Below are positions 3,754 to 54,830 of a stretch of 64,000 bases of DNA, piece after piece. The position numbers and the translations under genes are program-made. Source of the DNA: Acidobacteriota bacterium. Its GTDB lineage: Bacteria; Acidobacteriota; Terriglobia; Bryobacterales; Bryobacteraceae. The first letter of the stretch is position 1, and each line of letters begins with the position of its first letter. Where the stretch lies: assembly GCA_017304135.1 (NCBI GenBank), contig JAFLBB010000007.1, forward strand, positions 7,404 to 71,403, in the 5' to 3' direction. Under the pieces are notes generated by a model. It worked only from the letters and a program-made list of their open reading frames with translations, had not been told where the DNA came from and ran no database searches.

Positions 3754-4392
3754 GTGCGCTTGTCCGCCGCACTGATCGCGTTCACTCTCGCAGCCTATGC
3801 CGCGCCCTTGGAGAAAGCGCCGCTGGGCGACGGCTGGTTCCCGATTGTCATCGTTGAGGTGACCGGTCCCGGTCAGGCGCCGGGTTGGACGGCCGTGGAA
3901 GTGGTTGAGGTGGTGCGCGGGGACCGCATTGAGGGCGCATGGCAAGCCTCGCTGGGCGGCTTCCCTGCCCGCCGCGGCGACCGCCTGCTGCTGTTCTACG
4001 CGCGTTCACGCGACAGCGGTCGCATTCTGCTGCCGCTGCATACCTATGAAGCCAACGACGAGAACGTGCGCTATGTGCGAACGAAGATGGCGATGGGGCC
4101 GCGAACGCGCCTGTTGCAGTTTCCCCTGCTGATCATCGCCATCATCGGCGCGCCGCTGGCCGGGCTGACGGCGATCATTTTCCGCAAGCCCTCGATTGGC
4201 GTTTGGGGTGTGCTGGCCGGACTCGCGGCGGGGTTGGCCTACGAGACTGGCGTGCCGAAACACACCAGCATCCGGGCCGATTGGCTGATGATGGCGCCCG
4301 CGCTGGCGGGCACCGCGCTCATGATCGTGATGGCACGCCACCGGGCGCGTGCCGCTACGATGTCACCTTCATCGACACCGGATCCCACGTGA
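3754..4392 (+). CDS. hypothetical membrane protein (signal peptide plus C-terminal TM helices)
   Basis: N-terminal signal-like MRLSAALIAFTLAAYAAPLE and two or three hydrophobic C-terminal helices. No recognisable family; may be real or a GC-driven ORF. Confidence 0.3.
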   Translation: MRLSAALIAFTLAAYAAPLEKAPLGDGWFPIVIVEVTGPGQAPGWTAVEVVEVVRGDRIEGAWQASLGGFPARRGDRLLLFYARSRDSGRILLPLHTYEANDENVRYVRTKMAMGPRTRLLQFPLLIIAIIGAPLAGLTAIIFRKPSIGVWGVLAGLAAGLAYETGVPKHTSIRADWLMMAPALAGTALMIVMARHRARAATMSPSSTPDPT

Positions 4393-40150: not shown

Positions 40151-40344
40151 TCCTTGAGCAGACCTGCGCGCGATTCGGCTTCCGCCTCGGCGAATAGAGC
40201 ATCCAGTTTCCCGGCGGCGGCATCCTTGTCCATCTGCCGGTCCCAGAGTTCCTGGTCACGCTCGCGCACCCATTCGGCAAGGCTGCGGAATTCCTCGGGT
40301 GTGAGACTGTCAATCGCCTGTTCGATTTGCTCGACACGGCTCAT
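40132..40344 (-). CDS. putative antitoxin / addiction-module component
   Basis: MSRVEQIEQAIDSLTPEEFRSLAEWV…, about 70 aa and acidic. Shaped like TIGR02574-type addiction-module antitoxins; overlaps the toxin start. Confidence 0.45.
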   Translation of the reverse strand: MSRVEQIEQAIDSLTPEEFRSLAEWVRERDQELWDRQMDKDAAAGKLDALFAEAEAESRAGLLKEWPARP

Positions 40345-40603
40345 GAGAGCAGTGTACCACCGCCATATCCACCCCACGCCGCGCCCTCCTTACGCGGAGT
40401 GTAGTGATCTACGCTCTCTCTCGGAGGGGCCGAAGCCTCCCCTTCGGCACGGCCCGCGGCCTGCCGCCTGTAGGGCTGGCCACTGCCCAGTCGCTGCCGG
40501 TGTGGTCACCGTTCCAGTACACGGATCTGACTTCGAAAATGGGACCTTGCGCTCCGCATTCGAAATCGCCACAATGATGGATTATTCAGCAGGAAATAGC
40601 ATC

Positions 40604-41110
40604 ATGCTTGGCCATCCATCATACTGGCTCGCCTGCACCGTATTGGTGCAAGCGGTAAGCGCTCAACCCGTCACACCACAAATCAAGACGATCGCAAACG
40701 CCGCAAGCTATGCGGACAGTGTTTCGTCCGGGTCGCTTGTGACCCTCACTGGCCAGAACTTGGCCGCCGCGACCTGCCTTGCCCAGGACGGCCTGTTCCC
40801 CGACGACCTCTGCGGTGTTCAGGTCGAGGTGAACGGCGGGCGGATTCCGCTGCTGTTTGTAAGTTCAGGCCAAATCAATGCTGCCCTGCCCTATGTAACC
40901 GGTCCGGCGCGCCTGAAGGTGGTGAACAACGGCGCTGCGAGCGCGGAGTTCAACACCGAGATCAAACCGGCGGCGCCGGGAATCTTCTTCCAATCGAACC
41001 TCTACGCCGCGGCGTTGCTGGGCGACTACTCGATCCTGCAACCGACATACACGGCCCGCACAAACGGTGCAAAGAGCATCCTCCAGCTCTACGAGCTTGT
41101 TGAAAAATGA
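40604..41110 (+). CDS. secreted Ig-like (TIGR03437-like, Solibacter-type) domain protein, probably a gene fragment
   Basis: Signal peptide MLGHPSYWLACTVLVQAVSA. IKTIANAASYADS…GSLVTLTGQNL…VNGGRIPLLFVSSGQINAALPY pattern recalls the TIGR03437 Ig-like repeat. The ORF ends inside an inverted-repeat element. Confidence 0.4.
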   Translation: MLGHPSYWLACTVLVQAVSAQPVTPQIKTIANAASYADSVSSGSLVTLTGQNLAAATCLAQDGLFPDDLCGVQVEVNGGRIPLLFVSSGQINAALPYVTGPARLKVVNNGAASAEFNTEIKPAAPGIFFQSNLYAAALLGDYSILQPTYTARTNGAKSILQLYELVEK

Positions 41111-41252
41111 TTCTCTGATGTTAGGAGGTGGAATCTGCCTGAAGAACTTCGCACAGAATTGACCTACAACGCGTCGAATCGAACGCGGCAGGCATTTGCT
41201 ATCCCCTGATCAGAGATCATTCTGCGGCGTGTTCGAGTTTTTCAACAAGCTC
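41093..41252. repeat. imperfect inverted repeat (~27/44-bp arms, ~90-bp spacer) forming a large hairpin or MITE-like element
   Basis: Left arm gagcttgttgaaaaa+tgattctctgat (41093-41119). Right arm atcagagatcat+17 nt+tttttcaacaagctc (41209-41252). The 15-bp outer segments are exact reverse complements. Confidence 0.5.
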
Positions 41253-41552
41253 CTAGCCGCGGTGCTTCAACCAACGCTCGCACACGAACTTGGACACGCC
41301 TTGGGCCGCGGACCAACTGGTGCGCACTCGATCTCTGACAAGCACGTTATGTACAGATTCGTTGATGCAGGTCCGAGGGCCACCTCCGCATTCGAGGGCG
41401 CGCATGATCGCTTGATCTATGGCCTCCCATATGGCTACAATCTGTCGAATACGTTTGAGGGAGCAAGTGCGCCTGCGCTGAAAACCGCTGCCGCACCGCA
41501 GATCAAGGCTGTGCAGCCGGATTACTCGCTTGCGCACGGACCCGTTCAGTAG
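41196..41552 (+). pseudogene. metzincin-like zinc-binding/Met-turn fragment (HELGHALGRGPTGAHS…HVMY), probably a remnant of a disrupted metalloprotease gene
   Basis: The ORF starts inside the right arm of the inverted repeat. It carries HExxH and a Met-turn like matrixin C-termini, but lacks any N-terminal catalytic-domain sequence. Confidence 0.3.
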
Positions 41553-41677
41553 AACTGTGCCAGCACGTTCGGGTCCTGTTGCGGCATGGCCTGGTGCAGG
41601 TTGCGCTCGGAACCGTTTCACAACTCCTGGGCAGCCGGGCACCGCCATATCGCCGCCTAACCATCCCTCCCCACGCA

Positions 41678-41697
41678 TAGTGTAATGATTTACACTA
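41678..41697. promoter_or_regulatory. perfect palindrome TAGTGTAA-TGAT-TTACACTA abutting the dnaE2 start codon
   Basis: 8-bp arms are exact reverse complements. Ends 1 nt before GTG 41698. Candidate operator. Confidence 0.4.
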
Positions 41698-44600
41698 GTG
41701 GTCGTGAGCCCCCCCTACATCCCGCTCGTCACCACCAGTTGGCACTCCATCCTCGACTCGACCATGTCCCCGCAGGTCATCGCCGCCGCGGCCGAGGCCT
41801 GCGCCATGCCGGCCGTGGGGCTGGCTGACGTCGATTCGCTCTCCGGCATGGTCGCGTTTCACAAAGCCGCGCGGGCCAAGGGCGTCCATCCCGTGGTCGG
41901 CGCGCGCGTGCGCCTCACCGGGTTCGGCGAGGCGCCGATGCGCTGCGCGTTGCTCGTGCAAAACGCCGCCGGCTACCGCAACCTCTGCCGCCTCCTCACG
42001 CGCGGAGCCTCGCGCGACAACATCGCCACGCTCGCCGAAGGGCTCATCTGCCTCTACCTGCCCGGCAACCCGGCCTCGCAAACCGTGCTCAGCTCCGTGC
42101 GCGAGCTGTTCGAGCGCAGCTTCGCCCTCGCCCTCTCGGTGCACACCGAGGAGGCGCGGCGCTCGGCGAAATCGTACATCGAGGCTGGCCGGCGCATGAT
42201 GGCCCCGCTGGTCACCGTGGCCGAGTCGCACTACCTCACGCCCGAAGACCGCGAACTCTACGACGTGCTCGCCTCCATGCGCACGCTGACGATGCTGAAG
42301 CAACAGCATCCGGACAAGCTCCCCGCCTCGGGCGCGTTTCACTTTCACACGCAGCAGGAGATGCAGCGCGCCTTCGCCCACCTGCCGCAGGCGCTCGCCA
42401 ACACCGAACGCATCGCCGAGCGCTGCCAGTTTGAACCGCCGCTGGGCGACCTCCACTTCCCCGACTTCCCCGCCCCGGCCGGCGCCGACCACATGCTCAT
42501 GCTGCGCCAGTTGTGCGAGGCGGGCATGGCTCGCCGCTACGGCACGCCGAAGCGCGAGGCATGGGAGCGGCTGGAGCGCGAGTTGAAAACGATCGCCGAA
42601 ACCGGCTACCAGGATTACTTCCTCATCTTTTCCGACATCGTGCGCTGGGCCAACGAACACGGCATCGAAACGCTGGCCCGCGGCAGCGCCGCCGGCAGCC
42701 TCGTCTGCTACGCGCTCGGCATCTCCAACGTCTGCCCGTTCCGCTTCGGCCTCTGCTTTGAGCGCTTCCTGAACAAGGAGCGCATGTCGTTCGCCAAGCT
42801 CGCCGACATCGATCTCGACCTGCCGTGGGACAAGCGCGACGAAGTGGTCGCCTATGCCTTCGACAAATACGGCGGCGGCAAAACCCACCCGCTCGGTGGC
42901 CGCGTAGCCATGATCGGCGCGCTGAACACCTTCCAGGGCCGCTCGGCCGTCGCCGACATCGCCAAGGTGTATGGCGTCCCCGAACGCGAGGTGCGGCGCT
43001 TCACCGAATACCTGCCCTCGTTCGTTGGCGATCCGCTGGCCGTACTCGACCGCATTCCCGAATGCAGGGACCTGCCCGTGACGCAGGAGCCCTATGCGTC
43101 GGCCCTCAAAATGGCCTGGCGCGTCGATGGCGTGCCGCGCCACCGCATGATGCACCCCTGCGGTCTCGTAATTTCGCACACGCCCGTCGAAGATCGCATG
43201 CCGCTCTTCCTGAGCGCCAAGGGCCTGCCCACCACGCAGTATGCAATGGACGACGTCGAAGAGCTCGGACTGCTGAAGATGGACCTGCTCGGCCAGGCGG
43301 GCCTCTCCGTGCTGCGCGACGCTGTGGCCAACGTGCGCTCGAGCCGCGGCGTCGAGGTGAAGGTGGAAGACGCCGATTGGGAGGACGGCGAAACCTGGGA
43401 GGCCATTGCCACGGGCAACGCGCGCGGCGTGTTTCACATTGAGTCGCCGGCAATGACCGGCTTGTTAGTCATGAGTAACTGCCGCGATATTGATTGCCTG
43501 ACGGCGGTCGAGTCCATCATCCGCCCTGGCGCGGCCAACGAGGGCAAGAAGCGCGCCTTTGCGCGGCGGCATCAGGGCCTGGAGCCGGTGGACTATGCGC
43601 ATCCGTCGCTCGAACCGCTGCTCGCCGACACCTACGGCCTGATGGCTTACGAGGAGCACATTCTGCTCGTGGCCAATGGCTTCGCCGGTGTGCCCTGGGG
43701 CCGCGCGGATCTGCTGCGGCGCGCGCTCGTGAAGAACAAAGACAAGTCGAAGATCGCCGAATATGGGGCCGAGTTCCGCGCCTGCGCCGCACGCATGGGC
43801 CGCAAACCGGAGGAGATCGAGGCCGTGTGGAAGTTACTCGAAGACTTTGCCGGGTATATGTTCAACAAGGCCCATTCGGCGGCTTATGCCGTGGAGGCGT
43901 TCCAAGGGGCCTGGATGAAGACGCGCTACCCGGTGGAGTTTCTCGCTTCCGTGTTATCGAACCGGCGCGGCTTTTACTCACCCATCTTGTATGCCCTGGA
44001 AACCCTGCGCTGCGGCGGCCGGTTCACCGTGCCGGACGTGCACCTCTCCGGCGAGCGCTGCGTGGTGGCCGGCGGCGCCGTCCGTCTGCCCCTGAGTTTC
44101 GTGAAGGGCCTGCGCGAGGAGACGGTCGAGCGGATTCACGAACGGCGGCCGTTTGAGGACGTGGGCGATTTCTTCCGCCGCGTTGAGCCCACGCGCGCCG
44201 AGTGGGTGGCGCTGCTCAAGGTGGGGGCGATGGGGGCGTTTGAGGAGCCGAGGGCGCGGCTGTTCTGGCGGCTGGCGCGGCTGGAGGCGGTGCACGCGCG
44301 CGCACGCGTGAGCCGGCACGAGGGGCTGCTGCTGAATCCCGAAGAGGCGGCCGAGGAAGCAGCCGGCGTGCGCGAGCACTTAGACGAGATGAGTAACTCG
44401 CCCAACCCGTCCTGGGAGCATGAGTTACTCGGATTTCCGGTAAGCGTGCATCCGCTCGATTACTACGGCCCGGGCGTCGACTGGGCGCGCTATGTTCCGG
44501 CGGCCGAAGCGCAGCGGCGCCTGGATGAGGAGATCGAGGTCTGCGGCCTGATCGTGTGCGACCGCCATCACACCACCGAGCGCGGCCCGATGAAGTTCCT

Positions 44601-44799
44601 CACCCTGGCTGACCGCTCGGGCTTTGTCGAGGTGGCCCTGTTTTCCGACGCCTACCGCCGCTTCGGCCACGCCACCACGCAACCCGTCGTGGCCGTGCGC
44701 GGCCTCGTCGACCCCTTCGACAATCGCAAAGGCGGCGTGATCAACGGCGCCATCGTGCGCGCTCCGGCCAAGGTACGGGCGCTGGGACGGGCCGGCTAA
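41698..44799 (+). CDS. dnaE2: error-prone DNA polymerase (DnaE2-type DNA polymerase III alpha subunit)
   Basis: 1033 aa, which is DnaE2 length (DnaE1 is over 1150 aa). N-terminal PHP domain (YIPLVTTSWHSILDS…) and polymerase core motifs (HPCGLVIS; NKAHSAAYA). GTG start; an in-frame TGA lies 12 nt upstream. Confidence 0.8.
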   Translation: MVVSPPYIPLVTTSWHSILDSTMSPQVIAAAAEACAMPAVGLADVDSLSGMVAFHKAARAKGVHPVVGARVRLTGFGEAPMRCALLVQNAAGYRNLCRLLTRGASRDNIATLAEGLICLYLPGNPASQTVLSSVRELFERSFALALSVHTEEARRSAKSYIEAGRRMMAPLVTVAESHYLTPEDRELYDVLASMRTLTMLKQQHPDKLPASGAFHFHTQQEMQRAFAHLPQALANTERIAERCQFEPPLGDLHFPDFPAPAGADHMLMLRQLCEAGMARRYGTPKREAWERLERELKTIAETGYQDYFLIFSDIVRWANEHGIETLARGSAAGSLVCYALGISNVCPFRFGLCFERFLNKERMSFAKLADIDLDLPWDKRDEVVAYAFDKYGGGKTHPLGGRVAMIGALNTFQGRSAVADIAKVYGVPEREVRRFTEYLPSFVGDPLAVLDRIPECRDLPVTQEPYASALKMAWRVDGVPRHRMMHPCGLVISHTPVEDRMPLFLSAKGLPTTQYAMDDVEELGLLKMDLLGQAGLSVLRDAVANVRSSRGVEVKVEDADWEDGETWEAIATGNARGVFHIESPAMTGLLVMSNCRDIDCLTAVESIIRPGAANEGKKRAFARRHQGLEPVDYAHPSLEPLLADTYGLMAYEEHILLVANGFAGVPWGRADLLRRALVKNKDKSKIAEYGAEFRACAARMGRKPEEIEAVWKLLEDFAGYMFNKAHSAAYAVEAFQGAWMKTRYPVEFLASVLSNRRGFYSPILYALETLRCGGRFTVPDVHLSGERCVVAGGAVRLPLSFVKGLREETVERIHERRPFEDVGDFFRRVEPTRAEWVALLKVGAMGAFEEPRARLFWRLARLEAVHARARVSRHEGLLLNPEEAAEEAAGVREHLDEMSNSPNPSWEHELLGFPVSVHPLDYYGPGVDWARYVPAAEAQRRLDEEIEVCGLIVCDRHHTTERGPMKFLTLADRSGFVEVALFSDAYRRFGHATTQPVVAVRGLVDPFDNRKGGVINGAIVRAPAKVRALGRAG

Positions 44800-52636: not shown

Positions 52637-53314
52637 ATGGTTCTCGGTTTTGGCCGGGGCGCACTGCGCCTCACAGGCGTGATGTTCACGGCATGGTGCT
52701 GCTCAGCCATCGCGCTGCCTCAGGATGTGAGCGGAACATGGGAGGTGATCTTCAAGGGCAGCGTGAGGACAAAGTTGGTGCTCCACCAGCAGGGCTCGGC
52801 TGTCACCGGTGTGTTGACCACCACGGACAACTCGCGCGGCGAAGTAAAGGGCACGTTCGCGGGAGGCCGCCTGCGCCTGGAGCGCGATACGGGATTGAAG
52901 ACCGTCCAGCGCTATGAGGTTGACGTCGCGGGCGATGAATTCCGCGGCCACTTCCGCAATGTGGGCGCCTATCCCGACGACGGAACCTTCACCGGCCGGC
53001 GCGTCGCCAGCGGATCCCCCGGCAGCGCCCTCGTGGACGGAGTGTGGGTCGTCTATTTCAAAGAACGCGACAGGACGACTCTCACGCTCAAGCAAAACGG
53101 CGATACGGTGACAGGCACGCTCGTGACCACCGACCGCTCGCGGGGGGAGGTCCGCGGAACCGTGAAACGGAACGTGCTGACGCTCATGCGGGACACTGGG
53201 CTGGCCACCATCCAGCACTACCAGGTGACCATCGAGGGTGACCGGTTCACGGGACGCTTCCGCAACGAAGGCCGCTGGCCGGACGAAGGCAGCTTCACCG
53301 GGCGGCGGGAGTAA
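52637..53314 (+). CDS. secreted protein built from two tandem ~100-aa repeats
   Basis: ATG 52637 with GGAAGG Shine-Dalgarno and a signal peptide. Repeat 1 (SGTWEVIFKGSVRTKLVLHQQGSAVTGVLTTTDNSRGEVKGTF…FTGRR) and repeat 2 (DGVWVVYFKERDRTTLTLKQNGDTVTGTLVTTDRSRGEVRGTV…FTGRRE) are collinear. Confidence 0.5.
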   Translation: MVLGFGRGALRLTGVMFTAWCCSAIALPQDVSGTWEVIFKGSVRTKLVLHQQGSAVTGVLTTTDNSRGEVKGTFAGGRLRLERDTGLKTVQRYEVDVAGDEFRGHFRNVGAYPDDGTFTGRRVASGSPGSALVDGVWVVYFKERDRTTLTLKQNGDTVTGTLVTTDRSRGEVRGTVKRNVLTLMRDTGLATIQHYQVTIEGDRFTGRFRNEGRWPDEGSFTGRRE

Positions 53315-54830
53315 GCCCGTCGCGCAAGCGGCCGGCCTGCGACTGGATCCCGGCCCGCCTGTCGGGGCTTAGACGCACCAGGTTGTTGAGTTGCATTCCC
53401 ATGCGGGGGATGCGCCGGAGCTGTGCCTCGTTGCGCAGCAGGAAGTCCCAATAAAGCGTGGTGAACGGGCAGGCGCCGGGGCCGGTCGCCACGGCCGGGT
53501 CATAGCGGCAACCCTGGCAGTAGTTCGACATGCGCTCGATGTACTTACCCGTTGCGGCATAAGGTTTTGAGGCCATGATGCCGCCATCGGCAAACTGCGA
53601 CATGCCGAGCGTATTCGGCAACTCCACCCATTCCACGGCGTCGGCATAGACGGCCAGATACCACTCATGTACCTGCCGCGGCTCGACGCCCAGAAGCAGC
53701 GCGTAGAGCCCGGTCACCATCAGGCGCTGGATGTGGTGGGCGTAGCCGTGCGCAAGCGTCTGCCCGATGGCCTGGCGCAGGCAGTTCATCTCCGTGTCGG
53801 CGGTCCAGTAGAACGCGGGCAGGGGCTGATGGGCGTCGAGCGCGTTCAGTGTGCCGTGAGCCGGCATCTTCAGCCAGTAGATACCCCGGACATATTCGCG
53901 CCAACCGAGGATCTGACGAATGAACCCCTCCACCGCCGGCAGCGGGGCCGAGCCTTCGCGGTACGCCTGCTCGGCGGCGGCAATCACTTCGCGCGGGTTG
54001 AGCAGCTTCAGGTTCAAGGCAGCCGAGAGCCGCGAATGAAACAGGACCGGCTCTCCCAACCACATCGCGTCCTGGAAGTGTCCGAACAGCGGCAGGCGAT
54101 GGGTGATGAAATCCTCGAGCGCGGCCACGGCCTGGCTGCGGGTGACGGGCCAGTCAAACGTCTGGGTGGAGCCGGGGTTGTCGGGGAACCGCGCGTTCAC
54201 CAGTTCGAGTACCGCACGCGTGGTGGCATCCGGCGGGAACGAGGCGGGGCGGACGTGAAGCGGCGGACCTTGCGCCGGGAACGAGCCACGGTTGTCGGCG
54301 TCGAAATTCCAGGCCCCACCGGCGGGTTGGCCCTCCTCCATCAGCAAGGCGTAGCGCCGCCTGGCTTCGCGGTAGAAGAACTCCATGCGGAGTTGCTTGC
54401 GGCCACGGGCGTGAGCGGCAAACTCCTCGCGCGTGTAGAGGAAGTGGGTGTCGTCCAGATACTCGATCGTGGGGCACACCGCCCGCAACTCTTGCTCCAC
54501 ACGGTACTCGCCCGGCTCGACGCAGAGGACGCGGCGCGGGGCGTGCCGGGCGATGGCACGCCCTAGCGCCTCAGCCAGCGAACCTGGATTCCCCGGCTCA
54601 TCCAAGACGTGGTATTCGACCAGGTAGCCGCGCGCCACAAGCTCGTCGCGAAAATGGCGCATGGCCGAGAGGAATAGCGCGGTGCGGACCTTGTGCGAAG
54701 GCACGTGCGTGGACTCAGCCGCCACTTCAGCCATCAGGATGCGGTCGCATGTGGCGTCGAATGCGGTAAGCGCCGGGGAGTTTGCGTCCAACTGATCGCC
54801 CAGAATCAGCACAAGGTTGCGAAGGCTCAT
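53295..54830 (-). CDS. cryptochrome/photolyase-family protein of the FeS-BCP (PhrB-like, COG3046) type
   Basis: N-terminal MSLRNLVLILGDQL. Four Cys arranged C…(~88 aa)…CQGC-x12-C, as in the [4Fe-4S] ligands of bacterial (6-4) photolyase PhrB/CryB. Confidence 0.7.
   Translation of the reverse strand: MSLRNLVLILGDQLDANSPALTAFDATCDRILMAEVAAESTHVPSHKVRTALFLSAMRHFRDELVARGYLVEYHVLDEPGNPGSLAEALGRAIARHAPRRVLCVEPGEYRVEQELRAVCPTIEYLDDTHFLYTREEFAAHARGRKQLRMEFFYREARRRYALLMEEGQPAGGAWNFDADNRGSFPAQGPPLHVRPASFPPDATTRAVLELVNARFPDNPGSTQTFDWPVTRSQAVAALEDFITHRLPLFGHFQDAMWLGEPVLFHSRLSAALNLKLLNPREVIAAAEQAYREGSAPLPAVEGFIRQILGWREYVRGIYWLKMPAHGTLNALDAHQPLPAFYWTADTEMNCLRQAIGQTLAHGYAHHIQRLMVTGLYALLLGVEPRQVHEWYLAVYADAVEWVELPNTLGMSQFADGGIMASKPYAATGKYIERMSNYCQGCRYDPAVATGPGACPFTTLYWDFLLRNEAQLRRIPRMGMQLNNLVRLSPDRRAGIQSQAGRLRDGLTPAAR

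Follow-up and report, generated by a model that had tools for sequence, protein, structure and literature searches.

In the LexA-regulated imuA-imuB-dnaE2 cassette, an error-prone DnaE-type polymerase is combined with a dead Y-family organiser, and a palindromic operator lies on the promoter. A different arrangement, the iPolY-DnaE2B-RecA mutasome, has been predicted from gene neighbourhood and AlphaFold models in two papers (Timinskas & Venclovas 2019, PMC6511836; NAR 2026, PMC12926913); in the latter, DnaE2B is found in genomes without imuA/imuB, and its partner is a Y-family protein, active or inactive, that bears a RecA-NT motif. Repressor operators on promoters of error-prone polymerases are already known as a kind of element, and the module type exists as a published prediction. 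Here we describe a 20-bp palindrome directly in front of an accessory DNA polymerase III alpha subunit (Pol III alpha) gene in a bacterium of the Bryobacteraceae (Acidobacteriota; assembly GCA_017304135.1, contig JAFLBB010000007.1, positions 7,404 to 71,403), the whole 64-kb stretch that was analysed being called the window. This palindrome probably binds a repressor dimer and overlies the core promoter of a DnaE2B-type gene, and the same operator appears to be shared across the genes of a split module.

The window locus resembles each of these systems in part. As in the cassette, an error-prone DnaE-type polymerase would be paired with a dead Y-family organiser under a palindromic operator; unlike the cassette, the window-type system has no ImuA, its Y-family protein is DinB-like, about 390 amino acids long and without an ImuB-C domain, its polymerase scores below the cut-off of the DnaE2 hidden Markov model, and LexA is a candidate binder only. 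With the iPolY-DnaE2B-RecA module, the window lineage shares an accessory Pol III alpha in the absence of imuA/imuB, a Y-family partner with a RecA-NT motif but no longer with the catalytic D-E, and the frequent adjacency of the two genes (L008, L029 and L046; loci are cited by number). One Bryobacteraceae genome, Paludibaculum fermentans, is itself listed with one DnaE1, one DnaE2B and no DnaE2A in the table of PMC12926913. The differences are that polymerase and partner are unlinked in the window, that a superfamily 1 (SF1) helicase has been added in one subclade, and that the accessible portions of the two papers give no regulation or operator for acidobacterial members.

The palindrome, TAGTGTAA-TGAT-TTACACTA, is a 20-bp inverted repeat with perfect 8-4-8 symmetry that occupies 41678-41697 and reads TAGTGTAATGATTTACACTA. 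It abuts the GTG start codon (41698-41700) with zero bases between, its final base being the one that precedes the codon; an alternative in-frame GTG lies at 41704. The 20-mer is single-copy in the window with up to three mismatches allowed, was matched at the same tolerance in none of 100 dinucleotide-preserving shuffles, and is conspicuously AT-rich against a window G+C content of 61–70%. The earlier note on this DNA had placed a palindrome immediately before the GTG and proposed that it was a repressor operator, that it might recur at other damage-response genes and that it left no space for a Shine-Dalgarno sequence. The placement can be read directly from the sequence, and the operator proposal is supported over a chance palindrome both by the shuffles and by conservation at orthologous polymerase and iPolY starts. 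Recurrence at other damage-tolerance genes is likewise borne out, namely at iPolY and SF1 helicase genes in related genomes.

Orthologues of the polymerase were retrieved through the protein, hence the sample is unbiased for the operator. The palindrome is present at the polymerase as CAGTGTAATGATTTACACTA in L001/L002 (96% identity), as TAGTGTAAATATGTACAGTA in L003 (64% identity), where TAGTGTAACAATTTACACTA also precedes iPolY, as AAGTGTAAAAATTTACACTA in L309 and as TACTGTAAATACTTACACTA in L310; in L008 it precedes an iPolY-dnaE2B operon. A Paludibaculum metagenome-assembled genome (MAG; L122) that came from a pattern scan also has it, with an orthologue 59% identical to the window protein. 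In total, the same operator stands at the starts of orthologous polymerase or iPolY genes in 30 or so independent loci, with the family consensus A-TAsTGTAA-N4-TTACAsTA-T. The natural arm variants (CAGTGTAA, AAGTGTAA, TACTGTAA and GTACAGTA) are non-compensatory, and such one-arm changes argue for a protein that reads the DNA sequence rather than for an RNA stem.

Pattern scans gave a consistent picture. A genome-collection scan with TAGTGTAA-N4-TTACACTA returned at least 119 stretches; among the matches listed, at least 13 were Acidobacteriota loci, all with the site 0–16 nt before the N-terminus of either the polymerase (eight) or iPolY (five). A metagenome scan with the 18-base pattern ATAGTGTAA-N4-TTACACTAT was complete at 118 stretches, of which 12 had a GC content of at least 0.6 (iPolY 9, polymerase 2, other 1). 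Among the matches listed, 24 of the 25 acidobacterial or high-GC sites lie within about 20 nt upstream of a polymerase or iPolY start. In about 300 kb of acidobacterial sequence, a position weight matrix (PWM) built from 17 sites picked up no further site that reached 14 bits, and a scan of viral contigs gave no high-GC match.

The scans also returned matches of other kinds. Among the matches listed, the sole high-GC exact site away from the polymerases (L193 9012-9033, GC 0.73) lies 36 nt upstream of a gene for a 196-amino-acid sigma factor of the extracytoplasmic function (ECF) type. In three Bdellovibrionales MAGs the 20-mer, with spacer TATA, occurs 13–14 nt upstream of a many-copy gene for a transposase-like protein of about 500 amino acids (L014, L026, L030, L037, L052, L076, L109, L115, L124, L028, L040 and L070); these matches were set aside as a multicopy insertion sequence. 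Those from metagenome Ga0315911 (about 45 loci, e.g., L132, L140, L142 and L146) were set aside as a repeat of one low-GC sample: the 22-mer ATAGTGTAATCGATTACACTAT and a variant with a TTGA spacer occur there on dozens of short contigs with a GC content of 0.26–0.42, and look like an abundant repeat.

A third target was found in one subclade. L310 holds three operators, at iPolY, an SF1 helicase and dnaE2B, and the third site, TAGTGTATATAATTACACTA at 4009-4028, lies 5 nt before the gene for a 636-amino-acid helicase (AAA_11/AAA_12) that is located between iPolY and dnaE2B. The two closest orthologues of this helicase in other genomes (L312 and L313, 6803-8004) each follow iPolY in a two-gene-type iPolY-helicase arrangement, as the second gene of the operon, and TAGTGTAAGAATTTACACTG lies in front of it. 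With helicase, iPolY and polymerase as the targets, all known targets are therefore DNA-transaction proteins.

The Y-family partner gene, encoding about 390 amino acids, lies directly before the polymerase gene in the three loci with adjacent genes and within 5 kb of it in L003, L122 and L310. Its product keeps the N-terminal HWDGDxFF. Where DinB has its catalytic S-x-D-E, 106 of the 120 best homologues have xVGA, xVGS or a close variant (x[VIS]G[AS]); the other 14 lack the search anchor, and DE was seen in none. The C-terminus carries a RecA-NT-like motif, ID.LR..FG...V.RG, and the protein is 33% identical to published gbDinB2-like iPolYs. The loss of S-x-D-E and the RecA-NT-like tail point to an inactive Y-family protein (iPolY) with a putative RecA-binding tail. 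The RecA-NT-bearing Y-family partner that characterises DnaE2B is found in relatives of the window bacterium and was not found in the window. One iPolY homologue (P0141) carries the NCBI name 'fused DNA polymerase IV/DNA polymerase III subunit alpha, partial'. Fusions of iPolY were sought among ten DnaE2 homologues of at least 1075 amino acids (1080–1252), and none matched iPolY.

The 1033-amino-acid polymerase of the window has the Pfam domains PHP, DNA_pol3_alpha, finger, HHH_6 and, weakly, OB. It passes the Pol III alpha superfamily model TIGR00594 (600 bits vs a cut-off of 434) and fails the models for both replicative DnaE1 (NF004226, 657 vs 1002 bits) and error-prone DnaE2 (NF004225, 517 vs 939 bits), the DnaE1 model scoring the higher of the two. 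Matches in the PDB were to DnaE1 structures only; aligned to solved structures, the protein covers residues 4-1063 of the 1160 of E. coli DnaE, so the C-terminal ~100 residues, the tau-binding part, are missing. The polymerase motif DxDxD is kept in the window protein and in 119 of the best 120 family members. The PHP motif HxH reads VTT in the window protein (region of residues 8-22, window 41698-41760), a form found in one of the best 120 family members (the window's own cluster), the others having mostly HNH or HCH and also HAH. The absence of a tau-binding C-terminus, the degenerate PHP metal site and the intact polymerase aspartates are those of an accessory Pol III alpha. Homologues are proteins of about 1000 amino acids from Bryobacteraceae, Bryobacterales and other Acidobacteria; the closest named genome contig among the matches listed is JADJOP010000019.1 (Bryobacterales bacterium Fred_18-Q3-R57-64_BAT3C.662), with 97% protein identity.

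The earlier note had described this gene as an orphan dnaE2. The orphan part stands, in that no Y-family polymerase, ImuA, ImuB, RecA or LexA was found in the window by tblastn or by Pfam scans of the long open reading frames (ORFs) submitted; nor does imuA or imuB lie beside any orthologue, the neighbours there being DinB-like iPolY genes. Canonical DnaE2 status does not stand, given the NF004225 score. Standing alone is the expected condition for DnaE2B, which by definition occurs without imuA/imuB, and the polymerase fits this kind by its features and by the published table. Two points weigh against the DnaE2B label: the assignment was made by features and not by a tree, and the first 400 amino acids are 27–33% identical to the N-termini of DnaE2A, DnaE2B and DnaE1 alike, in a comparison that used references limited to their first 400 residues and a hand-typed E. 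coli sequence. Class assignment by pairwise N-terminal identity was dropped, as it gave no separation of the three groups.

Promoter geometry was derived from 28 non-redundant sites, each read in the direction of the gene that follows it. Fourteen of the sites have TTG at -17 relative to the palindrome and four have it at -18; at no other position is it found in more than four. The spacer has a direction, with T at position 12 in 23/28 and A at position 11 in 17/28; the mirror positions have A in 15/28 and T in 8/28, respectively. This arrangement fits a sigma-70-type promoter (TTGnnn, 17 nt, AAnnAT) with its -10 element at palindrome positions 7–12, and such a placement of the -35 and -10 elements predicts a transcription start at about positions 19–21. 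Measured from the end of the palindrome, start codons fall at -1 to +12 nt, with one at +22, and the final palindrome base doubles as the A of ATG in two loci; we therefore predict transcripts that are leaderless or have a leader too short for a Shine-Dalgarno sequence. The window likewise has no space for one. There, the 5' end is predicted at 41697/41698 (range about 41696-41698). The palindrome would span the predicted -10 element and start of the polymerase, iPolY and helicase genes, the promoter overlap that characterises an SOS box.

The sequence is observed to be conserved and associated with particular genes, and the geometry of the promoter and the missing catalytic residues of iPolY are likewise observed; from these we infer a mechanism of repression and release. 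A bound repressor would exclude RNA polymerase, with the -10 element in the centre of the palindrome and the -35 element 17 nt upstream. On release of the repressor, transcription would begin from the last palindrome bases and yield an mRNA that lacks a Shine-Dalgarno sequence and has a leader of zero to a few bases. The operator precedes dnaE2B, iPolY (or an iPolY-dnaE2B operon) and, in one subclade, the SF1 helicase gene in Bryobacterales and related Terriglobia; in the genome studied here, the partner iPolY would be encoded outside the window. With the same operator at the genes of a split module, the parts of the iPolY-DnaE2B-RecA mutasome would be switched together. DNA damage acting via a LexA-type self-cleaving repressor would be the likeliest signal, although this is the least secure step of the mechanism, and for us its chances are about evenly balanced.

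The case for LexA begins with the targets, which are the classic core of SOS mutagenesis. Six of eight positions per arm agree with the LexA consensus of Beta/Gammaproteobacteria, TACTGTAT-N4-ATACAGTA, as do the spacing and the TA flanks, and in the natural variants TACTGTAA and TTACAGTA the agreement rises to seven of eight. The Beta/Gammaproteobacterial SOS box, CTGT-N8-ACAG (TACTGTATATATATACAGTA), is likewise a 20-bp dyad with equal half-site spacing and promoter overlap; TA-x-TGTA ... TACA-x-TA is common to both elements, and acidobacterial natural variants read TACTGTA and TACAGTA exactly. The two differ in that position 3/18 of the acidobacterial sites is mostly G/C-swapped (GTGT...ACAC), in that position 8/13 is A/T rather than T/A, in host phylum, and in that no acidobacterial site among the matches listed stands at lexA or recA.

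Several observations weigh against an SOS-type operator bound by LexA, or against parts of the promoter and regulon as we describe them. Among the 25 exact-arm high-GC sites in the matches listed, none belongs to lexA, recA or uvrA, and lexA is usually the easiest LexA target to find; both scans demanded perfect arms, leaving weaker regulon members invisible. No recurrent regulator gene was found by the operator, either by neighbour clustering at 18 acidobacterial loci or among the ORFs upstream of 29 sites. The palindrome is missing in three orthologues at 55–57% identity (L004, L006 and L311). No recognisable TTG -35 element is present in the window, where the corresponding hexamer is CCATCC (41661-41666), or in L001. 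A generic sigma-70 consensus scan found nothing at the palindrome and only an unrelated site at 41412-41441, inside an insertion. The only experimentally defined acidobacterial LexA box, that of Acidobacterium capsulatum with the sequence GTTC-N7-GTTC (Mazon et al. 2006, cited in PMC4951493), is wholly unlike the palindrome. In tblastn searches, LexA from E. coli, B. subtilis and M. tuberculosis, RecA from E. coli and one S24 protein found no match in the window or in any high-GC locus among the 311 searched. Finally, a conserved site in the galP region of Enterobacterales, which we take to be an operator of GalR/GalS (LacI family), has the same 16 arm bases; with arms equal to those of the galP operator, the half-site resemblance cannot name the binding protein, and the likeness to the E. 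coli SOS box is weak evidence.

A serious, though in our judgement unlikely, alternative is that the operator and regulon are as described and the binder is a repressor other than LexA, such as an XRE-type helix-turn-helix (HTH)-S24 peptidase like those of Bacteroidetes, a DdrO/IrrE-type pair or a dedicated local regulator, in which case the signal may not be DNA damage. The lack of a lexA or recA site among the 25 listed, the tiny visible regulon (iPolY, dnaE2B and helicase), the direct-repeat rather than palindromic form of the acidobacterial LexA box and the non-diagnostic arms all favour such a protein, as does the precedent of Bacteroidetes, which have rebuilt SOS-type control with non-canonical repressors (PMC8565304). 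It is opposed by the match of half-site, spacing and TA flanks to the Beta/Gammaproteobacterial consensus, by the lack of a candidate regulator gene linked to any site, and by the position of mutasome genes as LexA targets in nearly every phylum studied (PMC4951493; PMC6511836). Were the protein instead of the LacI/GalR family, the operator would couple the polymerase to a sugar or metabolite signal. The Enterobacterales site, TAGTGTAA-sCGA-TTACACTA in Shigella, Citrobacter, Buttiauxella, Brenneria and others, equals ours at 16 of 16 arm bases and in its 4-bp spacer length. LacI-family operators have a conserved central CG step, at which the hinge helices bind. This CG is conserved at galP, whereas 0 of 28 acidobacterial spacers have it at positions 10–11; moreover, the genes and phylum are unrelated, the acidobacterial targets are all DNA-transaction proteins, and no LacI-type or sugar gene is consistently linked to the sites, so we regard the LacI/GalR reading as very improbable. 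The galP-region site was itself found, as TAGTGTAA-sCGr-TTACACTA, in all 5426 E. coli genomes (L079 2235-2254), with galP-type Enterobacterales loci also at L017, L023, L061, L063, L075, L099, L103, L107, L120, L126 and L127.

Explanations without a DNA-binding protein fare worse. If transcribed, the palindrome would place an 8-bp stem right before the start codon, and the fold of the 81-nt region has an energy of -19.3 kcal/mol (z-score -4.5), so an RNA hairpin in the 5' untranslated region that controls translation or mRNA stability was considered. The arms, however, are conserved in sequence rather than in pairing, with G-G and A-G mismatches in L003 and single-arm changes in L309, L310 and L312; the predicted transcription start at the 3' end of the palindrome would leave most of it untranscribed, and there is no Rfam match. 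We give the hairpin very little credence. Short AT-rich palindromes do occur, and low-GC genomes contain the 20-mer pattern fortuitously or as part of mobile repeats, which might suggest a functionless chance palindrome or a terminator of the upstream region. Yet base composition predicts only about 5e-5 occurrences per 6-Mb genome at 65% GC, while the same two genes follow 24 of the 25 high-GC matches listed, none of the 100 shuffles produced a match, the palindrome has no T-run, and a terminator scan found none. A chance origin is refuted by the association across genomes, and the functionless reading as a whole has next to no probability. An operator for a dimeric repressor, possibly LexA, is the reading that we carry forward.

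The three orthologues without the palindrome share another upstream element, ATrGCGAAsAAAAnrCGAA followed by TGnTAnnnC (L004 7950-8000, L006 7950-8000 and L311 2890-2945). Here GCGAA-N6-(G/A)CGAA forms a direct repeat whose period is 11 bp, followed by an extended -10-like TGCTAyAAC; the element lies close to the start codon and hints at operator turnover within the polymerase family. The A. capsulatum LexA box is from the same phylum and presumably serves the same kind of response, but it is a direct repeat without sequence similarity to the palindrome, and is closer, if anything, to the GCGAA-N6-GCGAA repeat of these three loci. In a more distant relative (L246 8263-13210; 45% identical, P0120), the polymerase lies in a three-gene S24 peptidase-PolY-DnaE operon with no palindrome upstream; the N-terminal motif of this PolY, FDADAFFASVEQ, the part that was examined, looks catalytically intact. 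The S24 peptidase, which is UmuD-like and 157 amino acids long, was considered as a lead to the regulator and rejected, as it has no HTH and its operon no palindrome.

The features of the window are collected in Table 1. The earlier note had placed the polymerase after a region of gene fragments; this region is real and corresponds to a 1.22-kb insertion that two 96–97% identical relatives, L001 and L087, do not have. Apart from the TIG domain, Pfam gave no match for ORFs of the insertion region. A segment of L001 (5940-5999) matches the window twice by blastn, once ending at 40415 and once at 41639-41698 beside dnaE2B, so that the insertion lies between two copies of a promoter/operator segment. 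The operator remnant in the upstream copy, GAGTGTAGTGATCTACGCTC at 40397-40416, has 5 of 16 arm positions changed relative to the intact operator and keeps the TGAT spacer; it falls under the PWM threshold. This upstream copy adjoins an ancestral divergent small gene, and the dnaE2B-proximal copy is perfect. Decay of the geneless copy is as expected if selection holds the operator only in front of the polymerase.

Table 1 Features of the window around the polymerase start.
Feature	Position	Strand	Basis or remark
Operator palindrome, TAGTGTAA-TGAT-TTACACTA	41678-41697	no strand	sequence; recurrence at orthologous starts
Predicted -10 element AATGAT (palindrome positions 7-12)	41684-41689	+	inferred from 28 sites
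DnaE2B-type accessory Pol III alpha gene, 1033 amino acids	41698-44799	+	Pfam domains, TIGR00594, feature match
Insertion of 1.22 kb between two operator copies	about 40417-41638	no strand	absent from L001, L087
TIG-domain ORF	40154-41110		Pfam; begins upstream of the insertion's left edge
HExxH-containing ORF	41196-41552		inside the insertion
Decayed duplicate of ~60-bp promoter/operator segment	40357-40416	no strand	blastn vs L001

A near-match to the A. capsulatum box, GAAC-N7-CAAC at 41610-41624, was read as chance, since it is part of the insertion and L001 does not have it. A gene related to photolyases (Pfam DPRP) is located 8.5 kb downstream of the polymerase at 53295-54830 on the minus strand, and the PWM scan found no operator-like site nearby.

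Our literature search returned nothing on this motif or on an SOS regulon in Bryobacterales, and found no description of the operator sequence, its distribution in Bryobacterales and Terriglobia, the co-regulation of a split module or the leaderless geometry. Acidobacteria are among the most abundant bacteria in soil. To our knowledge, their DNA-damage response is almost unstudied, with one LexA box described in one species. We suggest tentatively, and with more doubt than conviction, that the operator marks an undescribed damage-type regulon in Bryobacterales and related Terriglobia. Its repressor would be either a protein other than LexA or a LexA with gammaproteobacterial-like specificity, acquired laterally or by convergence, in contrast to the alpha-like LexA of Acidobacterium; the shared operator would then provide the first regulatory evidence of a mutasome expressed as one unit from leaderless transcripts. 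The 20-mer is a ready probe with which to fish out the repressor. With a direct repeat in the sister clade of the same gene, the palindrome also adds a data point on the turnover of SOS-type operators between lineages. Its practical value is modest, in that stress-induced mutagenesis in Bryobacterales becomes testable by a reporter. For the mutasome type, so far only predicted, the operator shared by its genes would constitute independent regulatory support.

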